64,000 nt of DNA from Terriglobales bacterium (GCA_025451775.1 JANWJU010000157.1:635-64634); one strand, 5' to 3'; numbered from the stretch's first letter, positions 7,707-45,600 are shown. Notes: a model not told the origin generated them from the sequence alone. Made by a program: numbers and translations.

Positions 7707-7724
7707 GGGCCGTAAGCGAGGCGA

Positions 7725-8082: not shown

Positions 8083-8108
8083 CCCCAGGCTCACCAAGGA
8101 ACTCCGTT

Positions 8109-8495: not shown

Positions 8496-8507
8496 GTCCC
8501 CGGGTTG

Positions 8508-8993: not shown

Positions 8994-9028
8994 AACTGAC
9001 CACTAGCAACTGGTAACTGGCAACTTTT

Positions 9029-9658: not shown

Positions 9659-9727
9659 CATCTGCATTTTTCAGGAGAGTGGGTCATCACCATGCCGACA
9701 GCTTGGACCGCCGAGGAGAAACACAGC

Positions 9728-10720: not shown

Positions 10721-10725
10721 CTGCT

Positions 10726-27293: not shown

Positions 27294-28589
27294 TTATAAA
27301 TCCTGCGCCGCGAGTACCGCCGGTTCCAGCCGCGGCGCCAGCAGGTGGATGGCGGCGATGGCGATCAGATAGGCGGAGCCGGCGATGATGAAGGGGATGG
27401 CGTAGCTGCCGGTCCATTGCAGCAGGTGCCCGACCACGCTGGCGATGACCATGCCGCCCAGCGCGCCGGCCGTGCCGCCGATGCCGACGACTGAGGCCAC
27501 CGTGCGGCGGGGAAACATATCGCTGGGCAGCGTGAACAGGTTGGCGGAAAATCCTTGGTGCGCCGCCACCGCCAGACCGATCAGCAGCACGGCTCCGGTG
27601 GTGGATTCGACCCTCGACGTGAAGACGATCGGCGTCACGGCCACGGCGCAAATCAACATGGCGATCTTCCGTGCCGCATTGACGCTTTTTCCCCGCTGTA
27701 TCAGCGATGACGACAACCAGCCACCGGCGACGCTGCCGACGTCGGCCATGAGGTAGATCAACATGATGGGCACGCCAAGCTGGATTAGGGAGAGGCCATG
27801 CTCCCGCTGCAGAAAGTCGGGAATCCAGAAGAGGAAAAACCACCAGATCGGATCGGTCAGAAGTTTGCCGACGGTGTAGGCCCAGGTTTGCCGGTAGGGC
27901 AACAACGTCAGCCACGAGACGCGGATCTCGGGATCGGCCGGGTCGCTGCGGATGTAGGCCAACTCCCCGGCTGAGCAGCGTGGTTGTTCCGCTGGCGGAT
28001 GATAGAGCCAGAACCAGGCGGCCAGCCACACAAATCCCAGGCCACCAATAAAATAAAACGCTGCGCGCCAGCCCCAGTGAATGGTGATCCAAGGCACGAG
28101 AAACGGGGTGACGACGGCGCCGATGTTGGTGCCGGCGTTGGCGATGCCGAAAGCCAGCGAGCGCTCCTTGCGGGGGAACCATTCCGCGATGGCTTTCAGG
28201 CTCGCCGGGAATACCGCCGACTCCGAGAGGCCGAGGGCAAAGCGGGCGGCTAAAAATTCGGTAAATGAGGACGCAAACCCATGCGCCATCGAGGCCAGAC
28301 TCCAGATCGCCATCGCCCAGGCGTAACCAATGCGGGTTCCCCAACGATCAATCGCCTGCCCCGCCGCGATCATCCCCAGCGCGTACGCGGCTTGAAAAGC
28401 AACGACCAGATTGCCGTAGTCGATTTCGTTCCAGCCAAACTGGTGTTGCAGGGTGTCCTTCAGGATGCCGATCACCTGCCGGTCCATGTAGTTTTTGGTG
28501 GTACCGGCGAGCAGCAGCGCGCAGATCGTCCAGCGGAAACCGGTGGCCAGTCGAGTTTTCGTCGTGGATGTTGCTGTTGACTGGGGCAT
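27294..28589 (-). CDS. MFS transporter, hexuronate (ExuT)/ACS-family-like
   Basis: 431 aa, ...FRWTICALLLAGTTKNYMDRQVIGILKDTLQHQFGWNEIDYGNLVVAFQAAYALG..., typical of ExuT-like anion:cation symporters. It is the last gene of the minus-strand sugar operon. Confidence 0.8.
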   Translation of the reverse strand: MPQSTATSTTKTRLATGFRWTICALLLAGTTKNYMDRQVIGILKDTLQHQFGWNEIDYGNLVVAFQAAYALGMIAAGQAIDRWGTRIGYAWAMAIWSLASMAHGFASSFTEFLAARFALGLSESAVFPASLKAIAEWFPRKERSLAFGIANAGTNIGAVVTPFLVPWITIHWGWRAAFYFIGGLGFVWLAAWFWLYHPPAEQPRCSAGELAYIRSDPADPEIRVSWLTLLPYRQTWAYTVGKLLTDPIWWFFLFWIPDFLQREHGLSLIQLGVPIMLIYLMADVGSVAGGWLSSSLIQRGKSVNAARKIAMLICAVAVTPIVFTSRVESTTGAVLLIGLAVAAHQGFSANLFTLPSDMFPRRTVASVVGIGGTAGALGGMVIASVVGHLLQWTGSYAIPFIIAGSAYLIAIAAIHLLAPRLEPAVLAAQDL

Positions 28590-28615
28590 AGAGCAGTCCC
28601 AAATGTTTGTGCGTT

Positions 28616-31144
28616 TTACGGTTGGGAGGGATGAATCGACACGTAATCGAGCGGCGCCAGCTCGCGGCCGTCCGGCGTGCCCTCGATGCGAATAACGTCG
28701 CCGGGGCGCAGCGCCAGGCCGGGTATCTGGCGGCGGGTTGAGGTGTCGCCGCCCAGGCGGAAGCCGGGCAGGTCATTATCGGCGCTCCACTCATCGACCA
28801 TCTGTTGGCCCACGAAAACCTTGAACGTGGACTCTCCCCGGCTCAGGTCGAAGTATTGCACGTTCATCTGGTACCATCCGGCGGGCCGCTCGAACTTAAA
28901 GCTGGCCACGCACGCCTTGCCGGGCGTGTTGCAGGTCACCGCTTTTCCGCCCGAGGCGTTTTCTGCCGGCGTCACGTTGACGGGAGCATAACCCTGGAGC
29001 GTCATCGATTCTGCTTCGGTGCGATCAGGATAGTAACCGACACGGCCGCGGGCATCGGCGATGCCCGACATGCGCAAAAACCAGTTGCACACCGCATCCC
29101 GCCAGACGATGGCGTTCCCGGCCTGATATTGCAGCCGGCCCAGCACAAACGCATACCGTTCTGGATCGATCAGTCCCCGCAGCGACTCCCAGTCACGAAC
29201 GTACTGTTGCACCCGCTGGACGCCCGTGTAGTGCGCGTCGTAGATGTACTGAATGACCGTTTGGCCCGAGTGCAACTTGTAGGTGTAGGGAACATGGTGG
29301 AAGAACAGCAGTAGATCGTCCGGTGTCGCGGCCAGCGTTTCAAACTGCTTCTGCACCGCGGGGGAATACTGTCCGATGAAGCCGGTGCCGGTGGCCACGG
29401 TGCGATCCATGCCGACGCCCTGGGGATCGGCGCGAAACCATTGGCCCCATCCGTTGTGCTCCGCAGAGCCCACGCCGGGACCATAGTGCGTGCCGAGAAT
29501 GTCGGTGAGCGTGCCGATGCCGAGTGAGCCCGTGTAGTCCTCATAGGTGCGCCACGAAGACATCTGCATCTGGTCGATGGTGCGGACAACTTCGGGGTTG
29601 TTGCCAAAGGTCAGTCGGGTCCACTCGTTCACGATCGCCGCGGCGCTCAAATCCGGGTTCCATGCCAGCCGTCCGAAGCCGTAGAGATTGGCCATGGACA
29701 TGGGGTTGCCGTCCCAGTTCGCGTCCAGCCCGACGTTGCTCACGCCCGCAAACCCGCCCAGCGGGCGATGCAACGAACGGCCGGTCACGATGTCCTTCAC
29801 CGGCGTGAGCCGGCCATCCACGTGCATGTCGAAATCGAGTGTCTTTTTCCACATCGGCACCAGGAAAACGAGGTGCCGCTGCTGCCCCAGATACTCCTGG
29901 GTGATCTGCAGCTCGATGGCTTGGTTGGTTTTGGTCAGCCCTCCAAAGAGCGGCGACGCCGGTTCGCGCACTTGGAAATCAATTGGCCCGTTTTTGATCT
30001 GGATGATGACGTTGCTGGCGAATTGGCCGTCGAGCGGATGAAAAATGTCATACGCCGCTTTGGCGCGGTCGTTCTTCAGATTGCGCCAATCGAGATGGGA
30101 GTCATAGACGAAGGCACGGTAGAACAGCAACCCGCCATGCGGCTGGAGCGCGCCGGCCAGCATGTTGGCGGCATCGGCCGGCGTGCGCCCATAACTGGCG
30201 GGACCAGGTTTGCCTTCCGAATCCGCCTTGACCAGAAATCCGCCAAAATCCGGAATCTGGCGGTAAATCGCGTCGACTTTCTGCGTCCACCAGGCGATCA
30301 CCCGCGGGTCCTTGGGGTCATAGGTATCGAGTTGGCCCAAGGCTTTCGGCGTGCTGAAATTGACGGCGATCTCCAGCTTCACCCCCCAGGGACGGAAGGC
30401 GTCGGCGATCCGTGCCAACTGCGGAATAAAGTCATCGGACAAGATCTTCGGGTCGGCATTCACATTGTTGACCACGCAACCATTGATGCCCACCGACGCC
30501 AGCAGCCGTGCGTAATCGCTGGCACGGCTCAGATCGGCGCGCACGCCGCCGTTGTCAAAGAAGATCGAGCGGCCGCCATACCCGCGCTCAATGCTGCCGT
30601 TCAGGTTATCCCATTCATTCACCCAGCGCACGGGCGCGGAGGGCTGCTCCGTCACCCGCAAGGAGCGCACATCTTCGTCCAGGGCGATTCTGTGCAATAG
30701 ATCGAAGGTGCCGTAGAGCGCGCCGGGCGCGTCGGCGCCGGCGACGATCAGGCACTCATGCCCGTGCACCGGGGCAGTCGCGATCCAGTAGCCACCCGCA
30801 GCCAGGGAGTGCGGTGCTTGTGCGCTCGGGGCCGCCGTCCGCAACGCCTCCAGCGTCGTGATCAGAATGGCGTTTTCCGTGGGCAGACCCTGCTCGTTAC
30901 GTAAAGTCCGCCCCAGCATCCCGCGCACGCCACGGATCAGCTCCGTCTGCGCCGTCTGCAATACGGTTGCAGGTCCCAGCACGGCCACCGTGGCCGGCAG
31001 GGTGTTGTACTGGGTTCGCTCCACCGCTGTCAGTGGCGCGTACCGGAGCCACGCTGCGCTGCCGTCGTCGGCGTGAGCGCTGGTTGCGTTGGTTGCAACT
31101 ACCAGCACAGCCAGTAGCAGACTCAGGGGACGGAATCGCGTCAT
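28616..31144 (-). CDS. aguA: alpha-glucuronidase (GH67) with C-terminal carbohydrate-binding-like domain
   Basis: 842 aa with a signal peptide. ADDGSAAWLRYAPL matches the GH67 N-terminal motif, and ...GYGGRSIFF...INGCVVNNVNA... matches the catalytic-domain motifs. About 130 extra C-terminal residues (...GGKAVTCNTPGKACVASFKFERPAGWYQMNVQYFD...) look CBM-like. Confidence 0.85.
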   Translation of the reverse strand: MTRFRPLSLLLAVLVVATNATSAHADDGSAAWLRYAPLTAVERTQYNTLPATVAVLGPATVLQTAQTELIRGVRGMLGRTLRNEQGLPTENAILITTLEALRTAAPSAQAPHSLAAGGYWIATAPVHGHECLIVAGADAPGALYGTFDLLHRIALDEDVRSLRVTEQPSAPVRWVNEWDNLNGSIERGYGGRSIFFDNGGVRADLSRASDYARLLASVGINGCVVNNVNADPKILSDDFIPQLARIADAFRPWGVKLEIAVNFSTPKALGQLDTYDPKDPRVIAWWTQKVDAIYRQIPDFGGFLVKADSEGKPGPASYGRTPADAANMLAGALQPHGGLLFYRAFVYDSHLDWRNLKNDRAKAAYDIFHPLDGQFASNVIIQIKNGPIDFQVREPASPLFGGLTKTNQAIELQITQEYLGQQRHLVFLVPMWKKTLDFDMHVDGRLTPVKDIVTGRSLHRPLGGFAGVSNVGLDANWDGNPMSMANLYGFGRLAWNPDLSAAAIVNEWTRLTFGNNPEVVRTIDQMQMSSWRTYEDYTGSLGIGTLTDILGTHYGPGVGSAEHNGWGQWFRADPQGVGMDRTVATGTGFIGQYSPAVQKQFETLAATPDDLLLFFHHVPYTYKLHSGQTVIQYIYDAHYTGVQRVQQYVRDWESLRGLIDPERYAFVLGRLQYQAGNAIVWRDAVCNWFLRMSGIADARGRVGYYPDRTEAESMTLQGYAPVNVTPAENASGGKAVTCNTPGKACVASFKFERPAGWYQMNVQYFDLSRGESTFKVFVGQQMVDEWSADNDLPGFRLGGDTSTRRQIPGLALRPGDVIRIEGTPDGRELAPLDYVSIHPSQP

Positions 31145-31176
31145 TTACTTCCTCGGTCGTAACTATACTCCGCGCG

Positions 31177-32811
31177 TCAATCTCCCGTGGCGCTGGCGCT
31201 CGCGGTGGCGGAGGCAACCCGAATCAGTTCCGGCAGGCAGGCGCCGGCGGCGGCTCCGGTTTGCCCGAGGGCGAAGTAGAGGTCGCGGTACAAAGGGTAG
31301 AGGCGGGCATAGATGGCCTCGGCGGCGGGGTCGGGGAGGTAGACCTTGTGGGGCGGGCAGAGGGCGTCCTGGGCCGCCTCAATGGTTGGGTAGGAACCGG
31401 CCGCGAGGTGGGCGAAGACGGCCGCGCCCAGGCTCGTGACCGGGGCGGTGGGCACCAGCACCGGGCGCCCCAGCACGTTGGCGTAGACCTGGTTGAGGGT
31501 GGAGTTCGTCTGCGGAATGCCGCCGCCGTGGATAATGCGGGTGAAGCGGGCGCCGTGTTCGGCCATGCGGTCGAGGATCAGGCGGGTGTGGAAGGCGGTG
31601 CCTTCGATGGCGGCGAAGAGCTCGTCCTGCGCGGTGTGGTGCAGCTTCCAGCCCAGGGTGACGCCGCCCAGGTTGGGGTTGACCAGCACGGTGCGGTCGC
31701 CGTTGTCCCAGCTCAGGCGCAGAAGGCCCGTCTGGCCGGCGCGATAGCGTTCCAAGCCTTGGCTGAGCGTCCCCACGGAGACGCCGGCGCGGCGGGCGAT
31801 GGCGTCGAAGATGTCGCCGGTGGCCGACAATCCGGCTTCCACGCCCGTGTAGCCGGGGTGTACGCTGCCCCGCACCACGCCACACACGCCCGGGATCAAT
31901 TGCGTCTCGCCGGTGATGCCGATCATGCAGGTCGAGGTGCCGATCACGTTGACCATGTCGCCCTCGCGCGCCCCAGCGCCAATCGCATCCCAATGGGCGT
32001 CGAAGGCGCCGACCGGGATGGGGATGCCAGCGCACAGGCCCAGCTCGGCCGCCCATGCGGGGGCGAGGTGGCCGGCGATGCAGTTCGAGGTCTGGGGCTC
32101 GCCGGCCATTTTGGCGCGCACCCCGGCGAGCAGCGGATCGAGCCCCGTCAGGAAACGCTCCGGCGGCAAGCCGCCCAGGTCAGGGTGCCAGAGCCATTTG
32201 TGGCCCAGGGCGCACACGCTGCGCGCGGCCTGCCGGGGAGCGGTGACGCCGGCGAGCGTGGCGGCGATGAATTCACAGTGCTCAAAGGCGTTGGCGAAGC
32301 TCGGGCGTTCATCAGGGTGGTGGCGCAGCCAGTGCAGGAGCTTCGCCCATCCCCACTCTGAGGAGTAAACACCGCCGCACCACTCGATCGCCGGGAGCGC
32401 CTCGCGCCGCGCCCGCTCGGTAATCTCGGCGGCTTCGGCCTTGGCGCGGTGGTCGCACCAGAGGTAGTACTCGCTCAGCGGCTGCATGTGCGCATCCACG
32501 GGAATCACCGAGGAGCCGGTGGTGTCGAGGGCGAGGGCGGCGATGGCGTTAGCGGGGAGGCCCGATTCGCGCAAGGCTTGGCGGGTGGCTTGGGCCAGCG
32601 CGCGCAGGTGATCGGCGTGGGACTGGGTGGCGTACTCGGGATCGCTCGGGCGGCGGTGCAACGGGATCTCGGCCACGGCGGAGGCGAGGCGGCCGCGGGC
32701 GCTGTCCACCAACGAGACGCGCACGCTGAGCGTCCCGAAATCGACGCCGGCTACGACTTGTTGGCCGCCGGCCCCAGCGCGGCTAGGCCGCCCGTCCCGT
32801 GGCTCAGGCAT
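31177..32811 (-). CDS. araB: ribulokinase (FGGY family)
   Basis: The Met at 32811 (MPEPRDG...VVAGVDFGTLSVRVSLVD...) is preferred; the ORF-track start at 33039 would overlap the upstream gene by 230 nt. The protein is collinear with E. coli AraB motifs (...LDTTGSSVIP...LWCDHRAKAEAAEIT...). Confidence 0.88.
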   Translation of the reverse strand: MPEPRDGRPSRAGAGGQQVVAGVDFGTLSVRVSLVDSARGRLASAVAEIPLHRRPSDPEYATQSHADHLRALAQATRQALRESGLPANAIAALALDTTGSSVIPVDAHMQPLSEYYLWCDHRAKAEAAEITERARREALPAIEWCGGVYSSEWGWAKLLHWLRHHPDERPSFANAFEHCEFIAATLAGVTAPRQAARSVCALGHKWLWHPDLGGLPPERFLTGLDPLLAGVRAKMAGEPQTSNCIAGHLAPAWAAELGLCAGIPIPVGAFDAHWDAIGAGAREGDMVNVIGTSTCMIGITGETQLIPGVCGVVRGSVHPGYTGVEAGLSATGDIFDAIARRAGVSVGTLSQGLERYRAGQTGLLRLSWDNGDRTVLVNPNLGGVTLGWKLHHTAQDELFAAIEGTAFHTRLILDRMAEHGARFTRIIHGGGIPQTNSTLNQVYANVLGRPVLVPTAPVTSLGAAVFAHLAAGSYPTIEAAQDALCPPHKVYLPDPAAEAIYARLYPLYRDLYFALGQTGAAAGACLPELIRVASATASASATGD

Positions 32812-34201
32812 GGAGATGCATGTCCCATTGCAGGTACCGGGTTGTGGCTTCGTGGATGGCGGCCGCGCATTGGGAGAAGTTGGCCGCGACGTGGTGCTCG
32901 AAGCCCTGCTCGCAGATGTAGCGCAGCAAGCGCTGCATCTGCGGGATCTCGACCACGCCCGCGCCGCCAAAGGTCTGCAGCGGATCGTCGGTGAAGCGGC
33001 CCTCGCCGCTGTAGCCGCGCATGCGGCCCGAGGTGTCATCGGTCGAGAAGCGGGCGTAGGTCATGGCGCCGGCTTTCACTTTCCCCACCACCGTGCCGTA
33101 GGTGTTCTCGACGCCCACCGTGCCGGCGATGATGGCCTGGAAGTCCATCTTGGTGGAGTTGAAGAAATGCTTGGGCAGGTTGCTGCAATGGAAGCAAACC
33201 GCCTTGTTGGGGTCGGCGCCGTAGTTGTTGTTCCAGTCGAGCAGGGCGCTGGGGGTGCCGGAGGCGAGGCGGAGCGCGTGCATGGCGAGGACGCCGCAGA
33301 TGTCCACCTCGCAAGCGCTGGAGAGCAGGCCCTCGCTCATCATGCTCATCAAGGTGCAGGGGACGACGCCCAGGTTCTCCTCAATCGACGTCCAGCACTG
33401 CACCGCGCTGATCTCGACCGCGGCGTGGCGCATCCAGCGATCGATGACCGCGCCCAGTTTGGCCATTTTCAGCAGTGCGGCTTCGGGCGTGTTGCCGGTA
33501 TCGACGTAGCGGCGGATGGCGGCGAGCTTGGCCTGGGCGGCGTCGTCGTGGTCGGGCAGGCGTTGGATGCGCCCGATGACCTCGCTGAGATCCAGCGTCT
33601 CGACGGTGATGCCCTGGGCTTCGAGGATTTTTTCACTGTAGCGCACGGTGTTGAAGGCGGTGGGCCGGGCGCCGATGCTGCCGATGCGGAGGTTGCGCAG
33701 GCCGCGCACGATGCGGCACACGGCGGCGAATTGGGCGAGATCGGCGGCGAAGGCGTCACTCTCGGGCGCGACGGTGTGGGAGGCGGTCAGCGAGTAGGGG
33801 ATGCCGTACTGGCGCAGGTTGTTGCAGGCCGACATCTTGCCGCAGAAGCTGTCGCGGCGGGCGGCGATGGACATCTGCGCCGGGACGTCGGGTGTGGCCT
33901 GCACCAATACCGGGACGCGGAGGCCGGAGAGGCGCAGCGTGTCGGCCACGGCGCGCTCGTCGCCGAAGTTGGGCAGGGTGACGATGACGCCCGCGAGGTC
34001 GTCCTGATGGCTGCGGAACAGCGCGGCGCAGCGCTTGGCCTCCGCGTAGCTTTCGACCGCGCCATGGCGGGATTGCTCGGGGGTGAGCGCCACCGCTTCC
34101 AGGCCGGCGCGCTGCAGCGCCGCGAGCATTTCGGTGCGGCCGGATTCCGCGAGGTGGCCAGGGAAAAAACCGCGGTTGCCGACGATAAGGCCGATTTTCA
34201 T
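32804..34201 (-). CDS. L-fucose/L-arabinose isomerase family protein (probable non-canonical L-arabinose isomerase)
   Basis: 465 aa, MKIGLIVGNRGFFPGHLAESGR...VTLPNFGDERAV..., not E. coli AraA-like. It sits between araD and araB with 4-8 nt overlaps. Confidence 0.75.
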   Translation of the reverse strand: MKIGLIVGNRGFFPGHLAESGRTEMLAALQRAGLEAVALTPEQSRHGAVESYAEAKRCAALFRSHQDDLAGVIVTLPNFGDERAVADTLRLSGLRVPVLVQATPDVPAQMSIAARRDSFCGKMSACNNLRQYGIPYSLTASHTVAPESDAFAADLAQFAAVCRIVRGLRNLRIGSIGARPTAFNTVRYSEKILEAQGITVETLDLSEVIGRIQRLPDHDDAAQAKLAAIRRYVDTGNTPEAALLKMAKLGAVIDRWMRHAAVEISAVQCWTSIEENLGVVPCTLMSMMSEGLLSSACEVDICGVLAMHALRLASGTPSALLDWNNNYGADPNKAVCFHCSNLPKHFFNSTKMDFQAIIAGTVGVENTYGTVVGKVKAGAMTYARFSTDDTSGRMRGYSGEGRFTDDPLQTFGGAGVVEIPQMQRLLRYICEQGFEHHVAANFSQCAAAIHEATTRYLQWDMHLHA

Positions 34202-34905
34202 GAGGGCTGTCCGTAATAGGCGCTGGCGCCGTGTTTTCTCAGGAAGTGCTTGTCGTGAAGGGCGCGGGCCAGGGGAGCGGCATGCGCCGCCGAGTCCCCT
34301 GACAAGACCAGCGTCTGGTAGGCCATCTGGGCGATGGCTTCGAGGATCACGGCGTGATGGGCAGCGGCGGCGGGATCGCGGCCCCAGCTGAAGGGCCCGT
34401 GGCCGTGCACCAGAGCGCCGGGGATGTGGTCGGGGTTGAGACCCTCGAGGGCGCGGCAGATGGCGGTACCGGTTTCGGCCTCGTAGCCGGCCGCGATGGC
34501 CTGGTCGGCCAGGGGCGCGGTGACGGGTACGGGACCGTGGAAGTAATCGGCGTGGGTGGTGCCGAGGCAGGGAATGGAGCGCCCGGCCTGGGCCCAGGCG
34601 GTGGCGTAGTTGGAGTGGGTGTGGGCGACGCCGCCGACGGCGGGAAACTCACGGTAGAGGCGCAGGTGCGTGGGGAGATCGGAGGAGGGGCGAAGCGTGC
34701 CTTCGACGGGGCGCCCCTCCAGGTCGGTGATGACCATGTCGGCGGGCGTGAGCTGATCGTAGTCCACGCCGCTGGGCTTGATGACGACCAAGCCAGCGGC
34801 GCGATCGATGCCACTGGCGTTGCCAAAGGTATAGAGCACCAAGCCCCGGCGCACGAGTTCGAGGTTGGCCTCAAGGACCGCAGCTCTGAGTTCAGGCAGG
34901 CGCAT
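34198..34905 (-). CDS. araD: L-ribulose-5-phosphate 4-epimerase
   Basis: The Met at 34905 (MRLPELRAAVLEANLELVRRGLVLYTFGNASGIDR...VIKPSGVDY...PSSDLPTHLRLY...GGVAHTHSNYATAWAQAGRSIPCLGTTHADYF) is near-collinear with E. coli AraD. The ORF track extends to 34983. Confidence 0.92.
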   Translation of the reverse strand: MRLPELRAAVLEANLELVRRGLVLYTFGNASGIDRAAGLVVIKPSGVDYDQLTPADMVITDLEGRPVEGTLRPSSDLPTHLRLYREFPAVGGVAHTHSNYATAWAQAGRSIPCLGTTHADYFHGPVPVTAPLADQAIAAGYEAETGTAICRALEGLNPDHIPGALVHGHGPFSWGRDPAAAAHHAVILEAIAQMAYQTLVLSGDSAAHAAPLARALHDKHFLRKHGASAYYGQPS

Positions 34906-34918
34906 GGTCTCGTGATGA

Positions 34919-37900
34919 TCAGTGATAGCGGTTGGGTGCTCCCGGCGTAGGCTCGCCATCGGATACCTGCGCGCCGCTGGCATGCGCCCGGGCCAAGGCC
35001 GCGCTGAGCCTAATTCCCGTGCCAGAGACTTGGACGCCGGCCGCGTGCGGATGCGCCAGCGGCGCTGCGACGGTGACCGTCATGGGGGTGCCAGGCCGGC
35101 CCCGGCGCACGGCGGCAATCGTCGCCGTCTCCGCGTCTGCGCCGCGATCAAGAGTAATGACCTGGCCATCGCGGAAGCCTTCCGCACTCGCCACCGGAAT
35201 CTCGGTCGCGCCCGCGTCAACGGCGCCGCTTACCGTGGTGCCGCCGGCCGTGCCCACGTTGGCGATCACCGCCGTTTCGAGGTTGGCGCCCATCCCGATC
35301 CGGATCGTTTCGCCGGCCTCGAAGCCGGCCACGCTGGTGACTTTAACATTGGTCGCCCCGGCGGCCGCCGCGGCCGCCAGCGCGGCATCGGTTTGCGTCC
35401 GGAAGTCGGCGCAGTTACTGTCGCTGTTGGCGCCGTCCGGGAAGCGGCCCGCGCTCGTATTGGTTGCAGCCGGTGCCGCGCCGAAGCGTCCGAACCCGGC
35501 TTGGGCAGGGCCGGGTGCGGCGACGTAGCAGCCGCTCTTCCCGGCGCCGGAGGCGCCCTGGTACCCCTCGGCGGCCCAAGGATCCACCAAGGCGCCGTAG
35601 TTGAGGCTGTCGACCACCAGGTCGGAGGCGTCCCGCAGCACCATGCTGCCTTGCCGCAGGGAGGAGGTGAAATTACCGAAACGGACGATGGTGGTGGCAA
35701 GCTCCGGGCCCCCAAACCATTGGTTGGGTGCCGGCGTCCCTTGATAGCCGGCGGTCGTGACCGCGGCATCGCGCACTGCCTCGTCGATGGCATGGTCTTT
35801 GGCCAACGGCCGATCGAGCGTTATTCCGGTGCCGAGCGGCAGGACCGGCTCGTTGCTCACATGCGCAAAGGCGGTGGCGGGCTCGAAGCTGATCCCCGTT
35901 CCGCGATCGCTGAAGGGGAGGTTGGACGCATGGTTGAACCGTAGCGGGGCAGCCAGATCGAGACCCGTGCCCAGGGTCTGCACCTCCTCGCCATTGGCAT
36001 GCGCTTGGTCGAGAGCCGGCGCAAATGCGATGCTCCCGCCTGCTCCGCCCGGCCTGAAACCCGCCCGCCCGCCGGTGCGAACCGTGGGCGTTAGGGCGCT
36101 GATGGTGACCGTGCTGCGGTGGTCCGGGGCGCCAATCAAGAGCTGATCGCCCACGGCAAAGCCGTTGAGGGAGCGCGCTTCGATCGTGGTCGCGCCCGCG
36201 CTGGCATCCCCCATCAGATTGGTGCGCACCATCGGCGTGCCCACGTGCGTGACGGTGACCGTCTCGATGCCATGGCCAACGCTGTCGATATCCAATGTGA
36301 TTTTGTCACCAACTGAAATGTCGGCGGTGGAGTTCACCTTGATATTGGTAGCTCCCTCGGGCGCCGCCGCGCCCAGCAACGCTTGCGTGCCCGGTTTTCC
36401 AACCGCGGTGATGGTAGCGACCTCATAGCGCTCGGTGGCATTGGCCACCGCTGGGGAGGTGGCGCCATAGCCGATGCCGATCTTCTCGCCCACCTTGAAG
36501 CCAGCCACGCTCGTGACCGGCACGTCGGTGGAACCTGCTGGAATCGTCACTGGACCTTCCGGGAGCGGCTGCCACACGGTCGTACTGTTGCCCGCCGCCG
36601 TCCCGAGGCTGGCGATCTTGCCAGTCTCCGCGCCGGAGCCGGTGCCGATGCTGACGCTATCGCCCACCGCCATGCCCGTCGTGTTTCTGACATGGATGGT
36701 GGCATCACCGGCGTGCGCCGCCACCGCCAGCCCGGAGTTGGCAAGGCCGAGCAGGTAGAAACCCTTGGCGGCGAGGTGCGTCCCGGCCGGAATCGTGACC
36801 TTGGAAAAGATCGCTTGCTGGGCCGGGTGCTCGGTCAGTGACCAGTTGGAGATGTCCGCGCTTTGGGAACCAGCGTTATAAAGCTCGATGAACGAATTCG
36901 TCGGGGAATCGGCGCTGATGCGGAACTCGTTGATCCTGATCGGGCTCTCGTTGCGTACCTTTTCGCTGGCCGTCACCGAGCGCTTCCCGCCGCTGACCGT
37001 CCACGAGGCATGGCTCACCAAATCGCCATTCAAGGCCGCCCGTCCCGAGGTGACCTTGAACGTCGCGCTCACGCTTGCACCCGGCGCCACCGGATGGGTG
37101 AACACGGCTGACTGCCTGCCAGTGCCCAGAACGACCGCCTTCCACTGTGGGTTGGGCAGGGCAAGGCTGAGGCTCAGCCCCGCCGCGGGGACGGCCGCAG
37201 TATTGGTGAAGGTCACCGTGGTGTTCTGCGAGGTGCCCGGCGCGAACGTCTGCAATCCGGTCGGCGCGGCCGTGGCCGCGGCCGGCGCCAGGCGCAGTGC
37301 CGCTACCCCGTACCCAGCCGCCACCACGTTAGCCTGCACCAATTGATCGGTGGCGTCGGTGGGGAACGTGCCCGCGGCGGTCATCGCGCCTTCATAGAAG
37401 GTCCCCTGGGCGCCGTTGCTGTTATCCCCACCATTGCCTAGGTCGATGGCGCCCTGCTTGCGCATCGGTGCATAGGTGGAGTTGACCCGGGGCCCGTTGT
37501 ACAGGACTGTGAGTTGGCCCTGCTGCGCATTGCCACCCAAGGTGGTCCAATGGTTCGCCTCGCCCTTGGCGATCGCGGTAACAAAGGGCCAGGTAATTGT
37601 TTTCAGGCTGGGACAGGTTTTGGAGCCGTCCGCGTTGACGCATCCGACTAAATTGTTCTCCTGGTCGGTCATGATCCAGGGGCCAGGAGCGGCTCCATGA
37701 AACCAGGCGCCGGCGTTGCCGAAGTAGGCAGTCTCCATGGTGCCGTTATCGTCGTCGTGGCTGTCGGTTTCGGCGTTGCCGTAATCGAAGCAGCACCCGG
37801 AGTTAAAGTGCCGTCCGTTAATCACCCAGTAAATCCCCTCGGCTTGGTCATCGACGGCGGTGCCTTTGGGGTTGTCGTTACGCAGGCCCATGCCGGGCTC

Positions 37901-38410
37901 GATGAAGACGCCGTAGACCTTGTGGCCCATGATCGTGACCGGCGCCATGTCGGCGACTGGGACGTTGTTCAACCCGCCCAGGGCGGGACCGCTGAAGTTG
38001 CCGCGCGGGGCCTGGGTGAGGTTGTTGTGCTTGGAGGATTGGTCGTAGATGGTGGTGATCCAGCAGTAGGTGTTGGCGCAAAAGCGGTCCTGCGCGACCG
38101 CATCGGCGTATCCGCCCGCGTCGGGGACAGGCGAGGCGACGGGCGGGACCACGCCAATGTCCAGGGTCTTGCCATCGGACTGGCGCACGACTTGGTACAG
38201 CGGCCCATTGTAGGAGGCGTACAAGGCGCGCGTGGTGCTGTCGGCGGAGACGCACGGGGTACCGGCGGCGGCGTAGATATCGCAGGGCCCTTGCGGCCGG
38301 GGCGGAGCCCCAGTGCTTTGCGCTACGGCCCACGCCGCACCCAGCAGCGCCAGCGTCATGGTGAGCCTAACGACACAATGGAAAACTTCAAAACCAAGTC
38401 GCGTCTTCAT
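34919..38410 (-). CDS. secreted GH54 alpha-L-arabinofuranosidase fused to NEW3-like, two lamin-tail (LTD) and multiple ~35-aa repeat domains
   Basis: The Met at 38410 gives signal peptide MKTRLGF...LALLGAAWAVAQS; the ORF track extends to 38458. Residues 57-385 (GPCDIYAAAGTPCVSADSTTRALY...CCFDYGNAETDS...GDNSNGAQGTFYEGAMT) are collinear with fungal AbfB (GH54) as I remember it. INEFRISADSPTNSFIELYNAG...ISNWSL is an LTD signature. Confidence 0.85.
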   Translation of the reverse strand: MKTRLGFEVFHCVVRLTMTLALLGAAWAVAQSTGAPPRPQGPCDIYAAAGTPCVSADSTTRALYASYNGPLYQVVRQSDGKTLDIGVVPPVASPVPDAGGYADAVAQDRFCANTYCWITTIYDQSSKHNNLTQAPRGNFSGPALGGLNNVPVADMAPVTIMGHKVYGVFIEPGMGLRNDNPKGTAVDDQAEGIYWVINGRHFNSGCCFDYGNAETDSHDDDNGTMETAYFGNAGAWFHGAAPGPWIMTDQENNLVGCVNADGSKTCPSLKTITWPFVTAIAKGEANHWTTLGGNAQQGQLTVLYNGPRVNSTYAPMRKQGAIDLGNGGDNSNGAQGTFYEGAMTAAGTFPTDATDQLVQANVVAAGYGVAALRLAPAAATAAPTGLQTFAPGTSQNTTVTFTNTAAVPAAGLSLSLALPNPQWKAVVLGTGRQSAVFTHPVAPGASVSATFKVTSGRAALNGDLVSHASWTVSGGKRSVTASEKVRNESPIRINEFRISADSPTNSFIELYNAGSQSADISNWSLTEHPAQQAIFSKVTIPAGTHLAAKGFYLLGLANSGLAVAAHAGDATIHVRNTTGMAVGDSVSIGTGSGAETGKIASLGTAAGNSTTVWQPLPEGPVTIPAGSTDVPVTSVAGFKVGEKIGIGYGATSPAVANATERYEVATITAVGKPGTQALLGAAAPEGATNIKVNSTADISVGDKITLDIDSVGHGIETVTVTHVGTPMVRTNLMGDASAGATTIEARSLNGFAVGDQLLIGAPDHRSTVTISALTPTVRTGGRAGFRPGGAGGSIAFAPALDQAHANGEEVQTLGTGLDLAAPLRFNHASNLPFSDRGTGISFEPATAFAHVSNEPVLPLGTGITLDRPLAKDHAIDEAVRDAAVTTAGYQGTPAPNQWFGGPELATTIVRFGNFTSSLRQGSMVLRDASDLVVDSLNYGALVDPWAAEGYQGASGAGKSGCYVAAPGPAQAGFGRFGAAPAATNTSAGRFPDGANSDSNCADFRTQTDAALAAAAAAGATNVKVTSVAGFEAGETIRIGMGANLETAVIANVGTAGGTTVSGAVDAGATEIPVASAEGFRDGQVITLDRGADAETATIAAVRRGRPGTPMTVTVAAPLAHPHAAGVQVSGTGIRLSAALARAHASGAQVSDGEPTPGAPNRYH

Positions 38411-38558: not shown

Positions 38559-39641
38559 TTACGACCGGGGAACCACCACCACACCCCACGGTCCTTGGCC
38601 CGCCGGTACCGTCTTAATGACCGAATTGGTGGCCAGATCCACCACCGACACGTCATTCGACGGCCCATTGGCCGAGAACAGCGTCGCACCGTCAGGCGAG
38701 AGCGCAATGCCCCAGGGGCGTGCGCCCACCTCGACCGAACTGAGGACCTTGTTGGTCTTGGTGTCCACTGTGAAAACCAAGCGGCCATGCCCGGTGGAGA
38801 CGTAGAGCTTGCTGCCGTCGGGCGACATGATCACGTCCATCGGTTTGATGACTCCCGCCTTGCCCAGCGTCATGGTCTTCATGACCTTGTAGGTCTTGGC
38901 GTTGACTTCCAACACGGTGCCGTCGTTTTCGGCGGGGATGTAGGCCCGCGAGCCATCCGGGGTGAAGACAATATTGCGGGGCCGGTGGCCCACGTTGAAG
39001 ACCGTGACCACCTTGTTGGTCGCTGGATCAAAGACGGTGATTTTCGAGGACTCTTCGGAAGTAAACCAGACTTGCTGGCCATTGGGCGTGAACTCAACGC
39101 CTTCGGGTTCAGCCCCCATCTTGACCGTCTGGATCACGTTGCCGGAGGCGATATCAACAATGGCGATGTCGGACGCGTCCTCGTTGGAGACATAGAGCCG
39201 CTTGCCATCGGGGCTAACGGCGAATTGCTCCGGGTTGTCACCGCCCTGAATGGTGCGCACCACCTTGTTTTGCTCCACGTCGTAGACCGCGATCCCATCG
39301 AGGCCGTGGTTGGGCGGCGGCAGCTTGCTCTCGTCCACGCCGGGGCCGGCGATGGGCGAGCCGCTGAGGGCGACGTAGATGAATTTACCGTCGGGGCTGG
39401 CGTGAATGCCCCGTGGCCGCCGGCCCAAGGGCACGGTCGCCAGAACGTTGAACCCATCTGAGCCGATCACGCTCATGTCGTTGCCGCGCTCGTCGCTGGC
39501 GTAGATGCGGTACGGGGAGGTGTCCTGCTGCAACGGCGTCTGCGCCACCGGTTGCGAGTTCGAGGATTTCGGGGACGAGTTGCATGCCCCCAGGCACGCC
39601 GCCAAGCCCGCCGCCAACAGCACCAGAGCCAGTTTGCGCAT
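38559..39641 (-). CDS. YVTN-family beta-propeller repeat lipoprotein
   Basis: The Met at 39641 gives MRKLALVLLAAGLAACLGAC (lipobox); the long ORF-track N-terminus to 40028 overlaps the ABC gene and is junk-like. Repeated ...PRGIHASPDGKFIYVA.../...FAVSPDGKRLYVS.../...IVFTPDGSRAYIP.../...IALSPDGATLFSA... blades are present. Confidence 0.85.
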   Translation of the reverse strand: MRKLALVLLAAGLAACLGACNSSPKSSNSQPVAQTPLQQDTSPYRIYASDERGNDMSVIGSDGFNVLATVPLGRRPRGIHASPDGKFIYVALSGSPIAGPGVDESKLPPPNHGLDGIAVYDVEQNKVVRTIQGGDNPEQFAVSPDGKRLYVSNEDASDIAIVDIASGNVIQTVKMGAEPEGVEFTPNGQQVWFTSEESSKITVFDPATNKVVTVFNVGHRPRNIVFTPDGSRAYIPAENDGTVLEVNAKTYKVMKTMTLGKAGVIKPMDVIMSPDGSKLYVSTGHGRLVFTVDTKTNKVLSSVEVGARPWGIALSPDGATLFSANGPSNDVSVVDLATNSVIKTVPAGQGPWGVVVVPRS

Positions 39642-39759
39642 GATGAGTCCTTTCCATTCTTTGGCCACGTCCGGGAGCGAAAGCCCCCAACTGCTATTCT
39701 GTTCAGACATTATTCCCCGGTCAACCGGAAATCCACGCCCGGCGCCTCGCCCGGCGTGT

Positions 39760-40539
39760 CTACCAGGCGTGGTAGTAACCGTCCTTTTCGTGGACGGTGA
39801 TAGGCGTGCCGAATAGCTCCGAGAGCACCTCCGAGCGCAGCACTTCGGCTTTGGGGCCATCGCGAAAGATCTGGCCCTGGCGCAGCAGCACCACACGCTC
39901 GATTTGCGGCAGCACCTCGCCGGTGTGGTGGGTGACCAGAACGATACTGTGGCCAGCATCGGCGAGGCCGGAGAGGATGGCGAGGAAGTCGCGCCGTCCG
40001 GGCAGGTCGAGGCTGGTGGTGGGCTCATCGAGCAAGAGCGTGTGTGGGCGGTGCACCAGGGCGCGGGCTAGCAGGCAGCGTCTCCCCTCGCCCGACGACA
40101 TGGCCTCCAACGAGCGATCCACGACCGATTCGATTTGGAGCTGCCGCACGGCCTCGCGCGCGCGCCGAGTCATCTCCGAAGTGGGCTGGCGCCGCCACAG
40201 CCCCACGGACGCCGAAAAGCTCGAGACGATCAGGTCCCACCCGGTGATGCCGCGAGCGAGTTCGCTCAGCATATCCGGGCTGACGATGCCCAGTTGGGAG
40301 CGTAGCTCGAACACATCCCAGACGCTCCGGCCGAAGATGGCGAGGCGGCTCCCCGGCTGGTACAAGGGATAAAGTTCCCGCGTCACCAGCTTGAGCAGCG
40401 TGGATTTCCCCGAGCCGTTGGGACCGAGGACGGCCACATGCTGGCCGCGGGGAATGTGCAGGGACACATCGTGGAGCCCCAGCTTGTGGCCGCGCTGCAC
40501 CGACACATGGTCCAGGCAAAGCAAATCTGGATCAGGCAT
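39760..40539 (-). CDS. ABC transporter ATP-binding protein (orphan, no adjacent permease)
   Basis: 259 aa. Walker A is GPNGSGKSTL, the signature is MSSGEGRR, and Walker B is LLLDEPTTSLD. Confidence 0.88.
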   Translation of the reverse strand: MPDPDLLCLDHVSVQRGHKLGLHDVSLHIPRGQHVAVLGPNGSGKSTLLKLVTRELYPLYQPGSRLAIFGRSVWDVFELRSQLGIVSPDMLSELARGITGWDLIVSSFSASVGLWRRQPTSEMTRRAREAVRQLQIESVVDRSLEAMSSGEGRRCLLARALVHRPHTLLLDEPTTSLDLPGRRDFLAILSGLADAGHSIVLVTHHTGEVLPQIERVVLLRQGQIFRDGPKAEVLRSEVLSELFGTPITVHEKDGYYHAW

Positions 40540-41405: not shown

Positions 41406-42584
41406 ATGCGCGCAACCTTCTCCCGTCAACTCGCGGGCTCCCGTCAATTTGCGGCGCTCTTGGCCGGCGCCGCCGCCGTCCTGGCTTTTGCGGGCTGCCA
41501 GCAGTCCGTGTCCAAGCCCACCGCCCGCGCCCCCGTGCCGGTTACCATCGCCCGCGTCACCGCCCAGAACGTGCCGACGCAGTTGCAGGCGATCGGCGCC
41601 GTGAAAACGGTCTCGACCGTGGCGGTTAAGTCCCTGGTCGGAGGCCAGCTCCGCACCGTGGAGTTCAAGCAGGGTGACACCGTCCGCAAGGGGCAGGTGC
41701 TGTTCACCATCGATCCCCAGCCCTATGAGGCGGCCCTGGCGCAAGCGCAAGCCAACTTGGCGCGGGATATGGCCAACAATTCCCAGGCCCAGCTCGAAGC
41801 CCACCGCTACGCCGATCTGGCCAAGCAGGGTATCGTTTCCGTCGAGGAAAACGAACAGCGCCAATCCGCCGCCGCCGCCGACGCCGCCATCGTCAGCGCT
41901 GATCAGGCCGCGGTGCAATCCGCCAAACTGAACCTCAGCTACGGCACCATCACCTCGCCCATCGATGGCCGCACCGGCAGCTTGTTGGTGCAGGCCGGCA
42001 ACGTGGTGCAGGCCAACACCACCATTCTTGTGACCATCAATCAGATCTCGCCCATCTACGTTGCCTTTTCCGTGCCGGAACAGTACCTGTTGGAGCTGAA
42101 GAAGTTCAATGCCAGCCATGCCTTGCCGGTGCAGGCGCAGGCGCAGGGCAATCCGCACATGGAGACCGGCGAGCTCTCGTTCATCAACAACAGCATCGAC
42201 AGCTCCACCGGCACCATCGAACTCATGGCCACCTTCCCCAACCAAGACCAGAGTCTGTGGCCGGGCGAGTATGTGAATACCGATGTGACCCTGGCCGTCG
42301 CCCGCAACGCCACCGTCGTCCCCTCCACGGCGGTGCTCACCGGCAACGACGGCATGTATGTGTACGTGCTTCAGCCCAATCGCACGGTCGAGGATCGTGC
42401 GGTGACGATCGGCACCATCATGAACGGCTTCACCGTCATTACCAAGGGGCTGACCCCGGGCGAGACGGTGGTGACCGATGGCCAGTTGTCGCTCGCGCCG
42501 GGCTCCGAGGTGCTGGTCAAGCAGGCCAGCGCGGATGTGGCCGGCGCCTCCAGCGCCGCCATGGGGGGTGCCACGGCGCAGTGA
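41406..42584 (+). CDS. efflux RND transporter periplasmic adaptor subunit
   Basis: 392 aa with a lipoprotein-like signal (LAFAGC). ...VGGQLRTVEFKQGDTVRKGQVLFTIDPQPYEAALAQAQANLA...NLSYGTITSPIDGRTG... matches the HlyD/AcrA family. Confidence 0.92.
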   Translation: MRATFSRQLAGSRQFAALLAGAAAVLAFAGCQQSVSKPTARAPVPVTIARVTAQNVPTQLQAIGAVKTVSTVAVKSLVGGQLRTVEFKQGDTVRKGQVLFTIDPQPYEAALAQAQANLARDMANNSQAQLEAHRYADLAKQGIVSVEENEQRQSAAAADAAIVSADQAAVQSAKLNLSYGTITSPIDGRTGSLLVQAGNVVQANTTILVTINQISPIYVAFSVPEQYLLELKKFNASHALPVQAQAQGNPHMETGELSFINNSIDSSTGTIELMATFPNQDQSLWPGEYVNTDVTLAVARNATVVPSTAVLTGNDGMYVYVLQPNRTVEDRAVTIGTIMNGFTVITKGLTPGETVVTDGQLSLAPGSEVLVKQASADVAGASSAAMGGATAQ

Positions 42585-42614
42585 AATCCACCGGTGGCCG
42601 GGCGATGCGGTGAT

Positions 42615-45600
42615 ATGAACCTCTCCAGCCTTTTTATTAAACGCCCGATCGCCACCGCCCTGCTGATGATGGCGCTGCTGGTGTTCGGCATCGTCGCCTA
42701 TCGGCAATTGGCGGTCAGCGACCTCCCCAACGTCGATTTCCCCACCATCGAAGTGCGCGCCTCGCTGCCGGGCGCCAGCGCCGAAACCATGGCCGCTTCG
42801 GTGGCCACCCCGCTGGAGAAGCAGTTCTCGGCCATCCCCGGGCTGGACGAGATGAGCTCCAGCAGCTCGCAGGGAAGCACCCAAATCGCGCTGCAATTTG
42901 CCCTGTCCCGCGACATCGATGGCGCGGCCGGAGATGTGCAGACGGCGATCTCCTCGGCCGGCGGTGAACTCCCGCCCATGCCCTCACCGCCGACGTTCCG
43001 CAAGGTCAACCCGGCCGACTCCTCGGTTCTGAACCTCGCCCTCAGTTCCAGCACGCAACCGCTCTCCACCGTCGACCACTATGCCGAGGTGGTGGTGGGG
43101 CAGCAGCTTTCGATGCTCTCCGGGGTCTCCGAGGTGAACGTGATGGGCGCGCAGAAATACGCCGTGCGCATTCAGCTCAATCCGCTCGCCATGGCCGCCC
43201 GCGGCGTGGGCATCGATTCGGTGCAAACCGCCGTCCAAAACGGCAACGTCAATTTGCCCTCGGGCGTGCTCTGGGGCGCCGACAAAGCCTACACCGTGCA
43301 GGCCACCGGCCAGCTCACCGACGCGGCCGCCTACCGCAACCTCATCGTTGCTTATGATAACGGCGCGCCCGTGCGCCTGCGCGACATCGCCGACGTGAAC
43401 GACAGCGTCGAGGTGGACAAAAACGAGGGCTGGGTCAACGGCACCCCCGCCGTGCTGCTCTCCATCATGAAGCAGCCCGGTTCCAACACCATCGATGTCG
43501 TTGACCGGGTACTGCGGGAGATGCCCAACGTCGAGCGCAGCATCCCGCCCTCGATCCATCTCTCCGTCGAGTACGACAAATCCATCCCCGTCCGCGCCTC
43601 GGTCAACGACGTCAAGTTCACGCTCCTGCTCACCATCTTCCTGGTGGTGATGGTCATCTTCCTGTTCCTCAAGAACATCCCCGCCACCCTCATCCCCAGC
43701 CTGGCGCTCCCCTTCACCATCGTGGGCACCTTCGCGGTGATGTACCTGCTCGACTACAGCCTCGACAACCTGTCCCTGCTGGCACTGACGCTCTCCGTGG
43801 GCTTTATCGTGGATGACGCCATTGTCATGCTGGAGAACATCGTCCGCCATCTGGAGATGGGCAAGACCGCCATGCAGGCGGCGCTCGATGGCTCCAAGGA
43901 GATCAGCTTCACCATCCTGTCGATGACGCTGGCGCTGACGGCGGTGTTCATCCCGTTCCTGTTCATGGGCGGGGTGCTGGGCCGGCTGCTGCACGAGTTT
44001 GCGGTCACCATTGGGGTGGCGATTCTGATCTCCGGCTGCGTGTCGTTAACGCTGACGCCAATGCTGTGCAGCCGTTTTTTGCGTCCCTATCAGGAGCACC
44101 GCCAGCATGGCTGGATGTACAACTTCCTGGAGAGTGGCTTCCAGGGCATGTACAAGTTCTACGATGTCACCCTGAAAGGCGTGTTGCGGCATCCGCTGCT
44201 GACCATGATCGCGTTTCTGGCGGTCCTGGCGGTGACGGTACAGTTGTTCCTGGTGCTGCCCACCGGCTTTTTGCCTGACTCCGACATGAGCGAGATCACC
44301 GCCAATGTTCAGGCGGCACAGGGTATCTCCTGGGCGGCGATGAAGCAGCATCAGGTCGAGGTGATGAAGATCATCGACGCGCTGCCGGAGACGCAGGCGG
44401 CCATGGCGTTTGCCGGCGGCGGCGCGGGCAACACCGGCCGCGTCTTCGATCACCTGAAGCCGATCGATCAGCGCCAGCGCAGCGCCGACCAGATCATCGC
44501 CGCCCTGCGGCCGCAAATGGACAAAATCCCGGGCGTGAAGGTGTTCCTGCAGAACCCGCCGCCCATCCGCATCGGCGCCCACGGCACCAACGCCCAGTAC
44601 CAGTTGGCATTGCAGGGGAACGATCCCGACGAGTTGTACCATTACGCGCCCTTGTTAGCGGACAAGCTGGCGACCTTCCCCATTTTGAAGGACGTCAACA
44701 CCGACATGCAGATGCAGAACCCCCAGGTGGACGTGGTCATCGACCGCGACAAAGCCTCCAGCCTGGGGGTCACCGCCGATCAGATCGAAAACGCGCTTTA
44801 TACCGCCTACGGCCAGCGCCAGCTTTCGCTGATCTACACGCCCGAGGACGAGTACAAGGTCATCTCCGAGTTGCAGCCGCAGTTTCAGCTCAGCCCGGCG
44901 ACCCTGGCCGACCTTTACATCCACTCCAACTCCGGCGCGCTGGTGCCGCTGAGCGCGGTCACGACGTTCAAACAAACCCTGGGCCCACTGACCGTCAACC
45001 ACATCGGTCAGTTCCCGGCGGTGACCATCTCGTTCGATCTCAAGTTGGGCGCGTCGTTGGGACCGGCGGTGAACCTGATTCAGCAGACGGCGGCGCAGAT
45101 GCTGCCGCCCACCATCACCCCGGTGTTTCAGGGTTCGGCCCAAGTCTTCCAGGACTCGATGCAAGGCTTGGGATTGTTGGCGCTAATGGCGGTGCTGGTG
45201 ATCTATATCGTGCTGGGCGTTCTCTACGAGAGCTTCATCCACCCGCTGACCATTTTGAGCGGACTGCCGGCGGCGGCTTTCGGGGCGCTGCTGACGCTGT
45301 ATATTTTCCACATCGATCTGAATATCTATTCGATTGTGGGCATCATCATGCTCATCGGCATCGTGAAGAAAAATGCCATCATGATGATCGATTTCGCCAT
45401 GGCAGCCGAGCGTAGCCATGGCTACGCGCCGGCGGAGGCGATCTATCAGGGGGCGATCGTACGCTTCCGGCCCATCATGATGACCACCTTCTGCGCCTTG
45501 GTGGGCATGTTACCCATCGCCATGGCCACCGGCGCCGGCGCCGACAGCCGCCGTCCGCTGGGTATCGCGGTGGTGGGCGGGCTGCTGTTTTCGCAGTTCC

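Follow-up and report, generated by a model that had tools for sequence, protein, structure and literature searches.

Glycoside hydrolase family 54 (GH54) is a retaining family in which Glu acts as nucleophile and Asp as acid/base (PMC6887791), and in a search of the Protein Data Bank (PDB) all of its structures solved so far are fungal. The closest of these to the protein described here are Aspergillus AbfB structures, among them AkAbfB of Aspergillus kawachii/luchuensis (1wd3/6sxt; E~1e-102 in the PDB sequence search), a secreted enzyme which joins a GH54 catalytic domain to the beta-trefoil of carbohydrate-binding module family 42 (CBM42; PDB 1WD3, 6SXR-T). Within CAZy, one fungal group and four bacterial ones have been distinguished in GH54 (PMC8155123, 2021), of which 'Bacterium I' (Acidobacteria, Verrucomicrobia, Proteobacteria, Actinobacteria) combines ArabFuran-catal, a lamin-tail domain (LTD) and NPCBM_assoc (+RPT1) in uncharacterised sequences (PMC8155123). 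Here we describe a GH54 gene on the minus strand of a 64,000-nucleotide stretch of DNA from a Terriglobales bacterium (GCA_025451775.1 JANWJU010000157.1:635-64634), the whole of which is referred to below as the window. By phylum and by Pfam/SMART domain combination its product belongs to the listed 'Bacterium I' architecture, for which the published account gives domain names only, with no split LTD, repeat units, nesting or biochemistry (PMC8155123). Taken as a whole, the data make it likely that the gene encodes a Sec-exported, retaining exo-alpha-L-arabinofuranosidase which belongs to an arabinose operon and carries a single, split LTD with nested arrays of two small repeat units, here called R and H, and that this tail has a generic role.

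The gene is a single uninterrupted open reading frame (ORF; 34919..38410, minus strand) with an ATG start and 1163 codons plus stop, preceded by a GAGG-like ribosome-binding site 8-12 nt 5' of the ATG. NCBI already holds an identical 1163-residue protein with the same start (P0001, 'arabinofuranosidase catalytic domain-containing protein [Terriglobales bacterium]'), and an alternative TTG start at 38458 would yield 1179 residues. The protein appears to carry a Sec signal peptide without a lipobox, as its n/h/c-region pattern matches that of the family consensus N-terminus; the cleavage site was placed by eye rather than by a dedicated predictor. Behind it, residues 42-367 match PF09206 across profile positions 1-314 of 315 (Pfam; E=3e-124, 414.6 bits against a 25-bit cut-off), and the catalytic domain is 57% identical to AkAbfB across 316 aligned residues. 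A beta-sandwich fold is predicted from this identity to a solved structure (1WD3) and not from an AlphaFold2 (AF2) model.

The active site is preserved. One offset of +16 in AkAbfB numbering places the relevant fungal residues, which we take, after Miyanaga 2004, to be Cys176-Cys177, Glu221 and Asp297, simultaneously on the CC pair, the Glu of DMENN and the Asp of GGDNSNG, and their counterparts C206-C207, E251 and D329 are invariant in 35 homologs. By homology, the catalytic domain would be a retaining exo-alpha-L-arabinofuranosidase that works by double displacement, as AkAbfB does, with Glu251 as nucleophile and Asp329 as acid/base, and cuts terminal alpha-L-arabinofuranosyl side chains from polymers of the arabinoxylan or arabinan type. 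Features of the gene and of its catalytic part are as follows.

34919..38410, minus strand: complete coding sequence, GH54 alpha-L-arabinofuranosidase with accessory tail (ORF list, translation, identical NCBI protein P0001)
38318..38410, minus strand: putative signal peptide, residues 1-31 (MKTR... LALLGAAWAVA/QS), without lipobox Cys (read from sequence)
37301..38293, minus strand: GH54 catalytic domain, residues ~40-370 (PF09206, AkAbfB match)
37790..37795, minus strand: Cys206-Cys207 (CCFDYGN), aligned with the vicinal pair Cys176-Cys177 of AkAbfB (alignment, offset check)
37658..37660, minus strand: Glu251 (MTDQENN), aligned with the AkAbfB nucleophile Glu221 (alignment, offset check)
37424..37426, minus strand: Asp329 (GGDNSNG), aligned with the AkAbfB acid/base Asp297 (alignment, offset check)

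An earlier interpretation made from the DNA alone (hereafter the sequence-only reading) had proposed a secreted bacterial GH54 enzyme whose N-terminal region is collinear with the catalytic domain of fungal AbfB, and in which CBM42 is replaced by a tail of about 790 residues with a NEW3-like domain, an LTD and repeats. The profile match, the identity to AkAbfB, the signal peptide and the bacterial source bear this out, as do the absence of CBM42 and the above-cut-off LTD described below. Its coordinates, 34919-38410, are likewise correct, while its residue numbers (57-385 for the catalytic domain, ~400-500 for the NEW3-like one) were counted from the TTG start and run 16 higher than those coordinates imply. 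The window enzyme thus resembles AkAbfB in its secretion, its collinear catalytic domain and its Glu, Asp and Cys-Cys residues, but is bacterial rather than fungal, lies in an operon with arabinose catabolism genes and, in place of the CBM42 beta-trefoil, has an Ig-like domain, a probably split LTD and R/H arrays.

A lamin-tail domain with apparently nested repeat arrays

No match to CBM42 (PF05270) was obtained for the window protein, even at E<=1 (Pfam). The ~790 residues beyond the catalytic domain begin with an Ig/NEW3-like sandwich and continue with the LTD and the repeats, and divide as follows.

36947..37258, minus strand: Ig-like/NEW3-like beta-sandwich, residues ~385-488 (sub-threshold PF10633, homolog scores, AF2, Foldseek)
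36725..36946, minus strand: N-terminal half of the LTD, residues 489-562 (INEFR..FIELYN..ISNWSL..FYLLG; PF00932, pLDDT 81-96 in the second model)
35765..36715, minus strand: repeat block 1, placed within the LTD, residues 566-882 (unit profiles; pLDDT mostly >90)
Block 1, R1-R4: residues 567-604, 625-672, 686-725, 738-774 (unit profiles)
Block 1, H1-H4: residues 791-811, 814-834, 837-856, 860-880 (unit profiles)
35393..35722, minus strand: probable C-terminal half of the LTD, residues ~897-1006 (SMVLRDASDLVVDSLNYG ... GRFPDGANSDSNCADF; spliced profile match, contiguity in P0175)
34958..35362, minus strand: repeat block 2, residues 1017-1151, absent in P0132 and P0137 (unit profiles)
Block 2: R5 1017-1054, R6 1066-1103, H5 1111-1129, H6 1130-1150 (residues; unit profiles)
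34922..34957, minus strand: conserved C-terminal tail, residues 1152-1163 (DGEPTPGAPNRYH; residue conservation)

The first of these domains matches PF10633 (NPCBM-associated NEW3) at residues 391-463 with 18.6 bits, below the 24.4-bit cut-off (Pfam), and at the same position five of six homologs score above it (30.6-43.7 bits), with P0132 just under (24.1 bits). Residues 390-480 form a confident beta-sandwich in the first AF2 model (predicted local distance difference test, pLDDT, 81-90), and Foldseek relates the region to the Ig-like sandwiches of lacto-N-biosidase, GH123 and TRAP-beta (probability 1.0, ~105-190 columns); it was the only domain that Foldseek identified with the full-length model.

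Sequence comparison indicates that residues 489-562 and 897-1006 probably build a single LTD, in which the fold is kept while the chain is discontinuous. The chain would leave the LTD after its fifth strand, where the 4R+4H block enters, and the 2R+2H block would break it once more ahead of the PTPGAPN tail. The decisive evidence is that natural deletion variants rejoin the flanking sequence. P0175 (822 residues) is without block 1 and has a contiguous LTD spanning profile positions 5-107 of 109, and P0132 and P0137 are without block 2, where '...SNC.DF....PTPGxPN' runs unbroken. In the window protein, PF00932 matches residues 487-581 (39.7 bits against a 34.3-bit cut-off; Pfam), and when the C-terminal segment is spliced to residues 485-558 the match extends over profile positions 5-108 of 109 with 45.4 bits, a small gain (42.9 to 45.4 bits) which is suggestive, not decisive. 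Both LTD pieces are confident in a model of the 684-residue tail built with 140 diverse sequences (mean pLDDT 87, predicted template modelling score, pTM, 0.82); with a shallow alignment AF2 had left the halves below pLDDT 50. The residues at the far end are conserved as well: P1154, T1155, P1156, G1157 and N1160 are invariant across divergent variants, and P1156, G1157, N1160 and Y1162 in close homologs.

Comparison with lamins is consistent with this arrangement. The Ig-folds of lamin A/C and B1 (1IFR, 3UMN; PF00932) share with the window protein an above-cut-off profile match, and the N-terminal half superposes on the crystal structures with a root-mean-square deviation (rmsd) of ~1.6-5.4 A, but the window LTD has ~335 residues between its halves and ~145 ahead of the conserved PTPGAPN tail. 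Foldseek aligned lamin Ig-folds to the tail model over 61-75 columns only (target-normalised TM 0.32-0.48), which is about the size of the N-terminal half and a further line of evidence for a split LTD. In P0131 (1218 residues), which has CBM42 at its C-terminus, the LTD insertion also holds a Laminin_G_3 domain (residues 560-719) flanked by R units, so that domains other than the repeats can occupy this site.

The inserted blocks are made of two units. R is ~37 residues long, with the pattern GATxIxVxSxxGFxVGDxIxIGxGxxxETxxIxxVG, and H ~20, with the pattern GTGIxLxxPLxxxHxxGxxV. Hidden Markov models (HMMs) built from the protein's own units, the unit profiles of the list above, recovered six R (i-Evalue 1e-9 to 2e-18) and six H (1e-4 to 4e-10), arranged as RRRRHHHH within the LTD and RRHH ahead of the tail. 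The four plus two long repeats of the sequence-only reading were thus recovered, whereas its three short units become six, again four plus two. Where R and H are contiguous they form a unit of ~62 residues in which Gly2, Gly17 and His57 are invariant and a Glu is highly conserved. This RH unit had no match in NCBIfam, a best E of 0.03 in Pfam-A, scattered among unrelated families, and a best E of 0.24 when its profile was run against PDB sequences. Foldseek gave no PDB match for the unit at E<=1e-3, and its run against BFVD gave phage tail proteins only, which do not superpose (TM ~0.1, rmsd 20-50 A). As a database search profile the RH alignment returned only 23 short unannotated fragments, and in the window and all 82 loci no gene other than the GH54 genes bears R or H units.

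When each R was scored as an opening and each H as a closing bracket in proteins of at least 700 residues (n=259), the string was balanced in 236, a count which does not represent 259 independent observations, most of the proteins being orthologs and the distinct architectures forming the independent evidence. The remaining strings all miss balance by a single unit, in most cases an H that escaped detection, this unit being short and its signal weak. The architectures, by protein and catalytic or associated family, include the following; R/H units occur also in P0181 (GH78), P0184 (melibiase-type alpha-galactosidase) and P0256.

GH54, the window protein's family: 4+4, 3+3 and 2+2 blocks
P0260, GH20: RRRRHHHH
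P0221, Ig_Rha78A_N protein: R7H7
P0220, GH35: RRRRHHHRRRHHHH
P0216, GH3: RRHHRHRHRHRH
P0239, GH2: RHRHRHRRHRHH
P0223, GH3: RRRHHHRHRH

Balanced strings of this kind suggest recursive nesting, which is their simplest reading. R and H would then be the two halves of an all-beta unit of ~62 residues, and an R^nH^n array would arise as whole units are inserted at the R|H junction of the preceding one. Relatives with three R and three H have the R3-type and H2-type units contiguous as an ordinary RH unit, and the window protein has R4+H1 exactly at that junction; exactly R4+H1 is missing in P0132, P0137 and P0125. Under nesting the chain ends of each array would lie next to one another and the array would project rigidly from the LTD. 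Ends that stay adjacent would explain how an array can sit in the loop of a host domain, and the high pTM of the tail model fits a rigid assembly. We tentatively propose, as a possibility we would rate somewhat below even, that R/H arrays represent an undescribed family of small all-beta domains which insert into themselves at the R|H junction, forming 'Russian-doll' stacks of at least seven levels (P0221) and serving as portable rigid insertions in loops of many glycosidases of the metagenomic set, in the window protein within an LTD.

Role of the tail

R/H units are common to proteins with GH2, GH3, GH20, melibiase-type alpha-galactosidase, GH35 and GH78 domains. The other glycosidases with arrays (P0216, P0223, P0239, P0260, P0220, P0181, P0184) share with the window protein the ~62-residue RH unit and the balanced grammar but belong to different catalytic families, and in at least one of them, P0239 (GH2), the array seems to fall inside the stretch that the catalytic-domain profile matches, not in an LTD. 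P0004, P0131 and P0171 carry R/H arrays and CBM42 together. P0004 (1923 residues) has two GH54, two NEW3 and two LTD domains, two 3R+3H arrays and one CBM42, and represents either two enzymes fused in tandem or a merge made in gene calling.

That the same repeats recur in glycosidases with many different specificities speaks against reading them as an arabinose-specific substitute for CBM42. Together with the relatives that have both arrays and CBM42, it favours a generic role, and the tail most likely serves structure, spacing or retention at a surface and not the specific binding of arabinose.

Alternatively, the arrays could be carbohydrate-binding or metal-dependent adhesion modules whose site is formed in every RH unit by its invariant His and its conserved Glu, and which functionally replace CBM42. 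The retention of these two residues in every unit, the position of the arrays where fungal enzymes have CBM42 and a weak Foldseek resemblance to beta-structures of phage tailspikes and depolymerases all speak for such a role. We nevertheless regard it as unlikely, as neither sequence searches nor any confident structural match linked the arrays to a CBM, the units occur also in enzymes for rhamnosides, galactosides, glucosides and GlcNAc, and the three proteins with arrays and CBM42 indicate that the arrays are not simply an alternative to that module.

Probable arabinose operon and likely substrate

The GH54 gene heads a run of six genes on the same strand, with the five downstream genes at 27294..34905 (minus strand).

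34198-34905, minus strand: araD (NCBIfam NF006047, 319.8 bits against a cut-off of 257)
32804-34201, minus strand: fucose-isomerase-like isomerase (Pfam Fucose_iso_C)
31177-32811, minus strand: ribulokinase (NCBIfam NF003154, 511.6 bits against a cut-off of 428)
28616-31144, minus strand: GH67 alpha-glucuronidase with its own signal peptide (Pfam)
27294-28589, minus strand: major facilitator superfamily (MFS) transporter (Pfam)

To judge from the spacing (GH54 to araD 13 nt, araD to isomerase a 4-nt overlap, isomerase to ribulokinase an 8-nt overlap, ribulokinase to GH67 32 nt and GH67 to MFS 26 nt), the six genes appear to be co-transcribed. Two mechanically called ORFs, 31177-33039 (ribulokinase) and 34198-34983 (araD), start too far upstream, their profiles beginning at residues 93 and 29; with the likely starts at 32811 and 34905 these two genes no longer seem to overlap at length with their upstream neighbours. 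No canonical AraA is encoded in the operon. The isomerase matches Fucose_iso_C only (Pfam), its best NCBIfam model, sulfoquinovose isomerase, scores 99.6 bits, far under the cut-off of 700, and from its position in the operon the enzyme may be a non-orthologous L-arabinose isomerase. In the GH67 protein ~140 C-terminal residues (~702-842) past the Pfam GH67 C-terminal domain have no family assigned and no R/H units.

Gene linkage suggests that released L-arabinose would pass to the co-transcribed isomerase, ribulokinase and L-ribulose-5-P 4-epimerase, and that GH67 and the MFS transporter would extend the system to the debranching of glucurono-arabinoxylan. The gene content of the operon is evidence that in the source genome the enzyme's physiological task is to free arabinose from glucurono-arabinoxylan. 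Directly upstream of the GH54 gene, at 38559-40539 (minus strand), lie genes for a beta-propeller protein of the PQQ_ABC_repeats type and an ABC-transporter ATPase, which are unrelated to arabinose use, and further upstream an HlyD/AcrB efflux pair (41406-45716, plus strand).

The arabinose-operon context is not conserved in 80 related loci, where none of the operon genes has a convincing ortholog; the sole araD-like match, in L024, is weak (30% identity, E=5e-12), and there are a few distant MFS matches. The linkage of GH54 to an arabinose operon is specific to the lineage of the window. In cultured Paludibaculum fermentans (L082), tandem GH54-NEW3-LTD paralogs at 4496-7897 and 8001-11069 (1133 and 1022 residues) lie ~4.3 kb from a GH43 gene, with two genes between.

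Several observations weigh against the overall interpretation of the window protein as an arabinose-operon enzyme with a split LTD and nested arrays. Within 8 kb, the 80 related loci contain no ortholog of araA/B, GH67 or araD, and in other genomes the neighbours are unrelated, one relative being solitary among unrelated genes. The literature searched yielded no activity data for members of the LTD-bearing GH54 subfamily. The full-length AF2 model, made with 35 close homologs (mean pLDDT 51.7), did not fold the catalytic domain, with pLDDT <50 over residues 1-368. The packing of the two LTD halves is deduced from variants, profile splicing, model confidence and the Foldseek alignments, and the R-H contacts are inferred as well; mean-field direct-coupling analysis for contacts between R_i and H_j yielded mostly gap artefacts, the effective number of sequences being only 57.

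The missing link in the 80 related loci would also favour a different substrate, such that the enzyme acts on another furanoside or pyranoside, for example the beta-D-galactofuranose of fungal or bacterial cell-wall glycans, with the tail targeting microbial surfaces. We consider this improbable, given that the GH54 gene lies 13 nt upstream of araD and is followed by isomerase, ribulokinase and GH67, that all active-site motifs are intact in a domain 57% identical to a bona fide arabinofuranosidase, and that the Paludibaculum paralogs are close to GH43, another arabinan/xylan family.

Architecture and distribution of the clade

The order GH54-NEW3-LTD-repeats-LTD-repeats proposed by the sequence-only reading counts two separate LTDs, each with its own tandem repeats, which would jointly form a swapped-in substrate-targeting module. 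In its favour, Pfam matches residues 487-581 to positions 4-101 of the LTD profile, as it would a complete domain, and the later segment has LTD-like motifs (VVDSLNYG, GRFPDG..DF). However, that segment searched alone gave no LTD match (Pfam), and past residue ~562 the Pfam match runs into the first R unit, which is modelled confidently within the repeat block; residues ~566-581, used to finish the match, form a hairpin that resembles the LTD hairpin in sequence. Since variants without block 1 join both segments as one LTD, and since the repeats are present in glycosidases of many other specificities, we regard two LTDs as very improbable. The proposed order gives way to a single LTD that one repeat block splits, the other block standing ahead of the PTPGAPN tail.

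Nor is the enzyme a rarity. The sequence-only reading held GH54 to have few bacterial members and the architecture to be unusual, which is contradicted by the published listing (PMC8155123) and by our searches. Of 8000 candidates scored in the first database search, 4627 proteins reached E<=0.001, and the best 120 of these are near full-length (~1115-1260 residues; P0004 1923) and 68-73% identical, their named sources being Terriglobia, Terracidiphilus, Acidobacteriaceae and Bryobacteraceae. Among genomes taken one per GTDB species, at least 558 encode relatives; the best 80 loci are all full-length, 64-71% identical and from Acidobacteriota, cultured strain KBS 89 included. A second acidobacterial GH54 subfamily (~1000-1065 residues) occurs in Bryobacteraceae, Solibacter and Paludibaculum fermentans (P0371). 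It shares the order GH54, NEW3, LTD, arrays, with a tail ~50% identical, but its own block 1 has 3R+3H against the 4R+4H of the window protein, and Paludibaculum has two tandem paralogs. Within a large and uncharacterised clade of acidobacterial GH54 proteins the enzyme is thus an ordinary member, and one that had been annotated before. The sequence-only reading had held that it would be refuted if the architecture proved common and characterised; common it is, but characterised it is not in the literature searched, where queries on nested or recursive domains, LTDs in Acidobacteria and characterised bacterial GH54 returned nothing beyond PMC8155123.

Recent horizontal acquisition of the gene from a fungus, with bacterial domains fused later, is extremely improbable and was rejected on uniform G+C and clade breadth: although the catalytic domain is 57% identical to that of Aspergillus AbfB and all solved GH54 structures are fungal, the gene's G+C of 0.65-0.69 matches its flanks, Terriglobales and Bryobacterales have full-length orthologs throughout (64-73% identity) alongside the second subfamily at ~50%, and published trees contain four bacterial GH54 groups (PMC8155123). 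G+C is uniform across the region, which therefore has no sign of recent transfer, and this uniformity, the clade breadth and the four bacterial groups together imply that any inter-kingdom transfer is old.

The view of GH54 as a mainly fungal family is outdated. The window provides a clean genomic link between one acidobacterial GH54 enzyme, arabinose catabolism and GH67, which is useful for reading hemicellulose use by soil Acidobacteria. The tail is the more valuable by-product, with a probably split LTD, a repeat unit outside Pfam-A, NCBIfam and PDB sequences, and a grammar which recurs across glycosidase families. If the nesting were confirmed, the arrays would illustrate protein evolution well and be a candidate new accessory module for the annotation of carbohydrate-active enzymes (CAZymes); if the proposal of a self-inserting domain family is true, they would represent an unusually deep natural recursion of domains and a new class of CAZyme accessory module.

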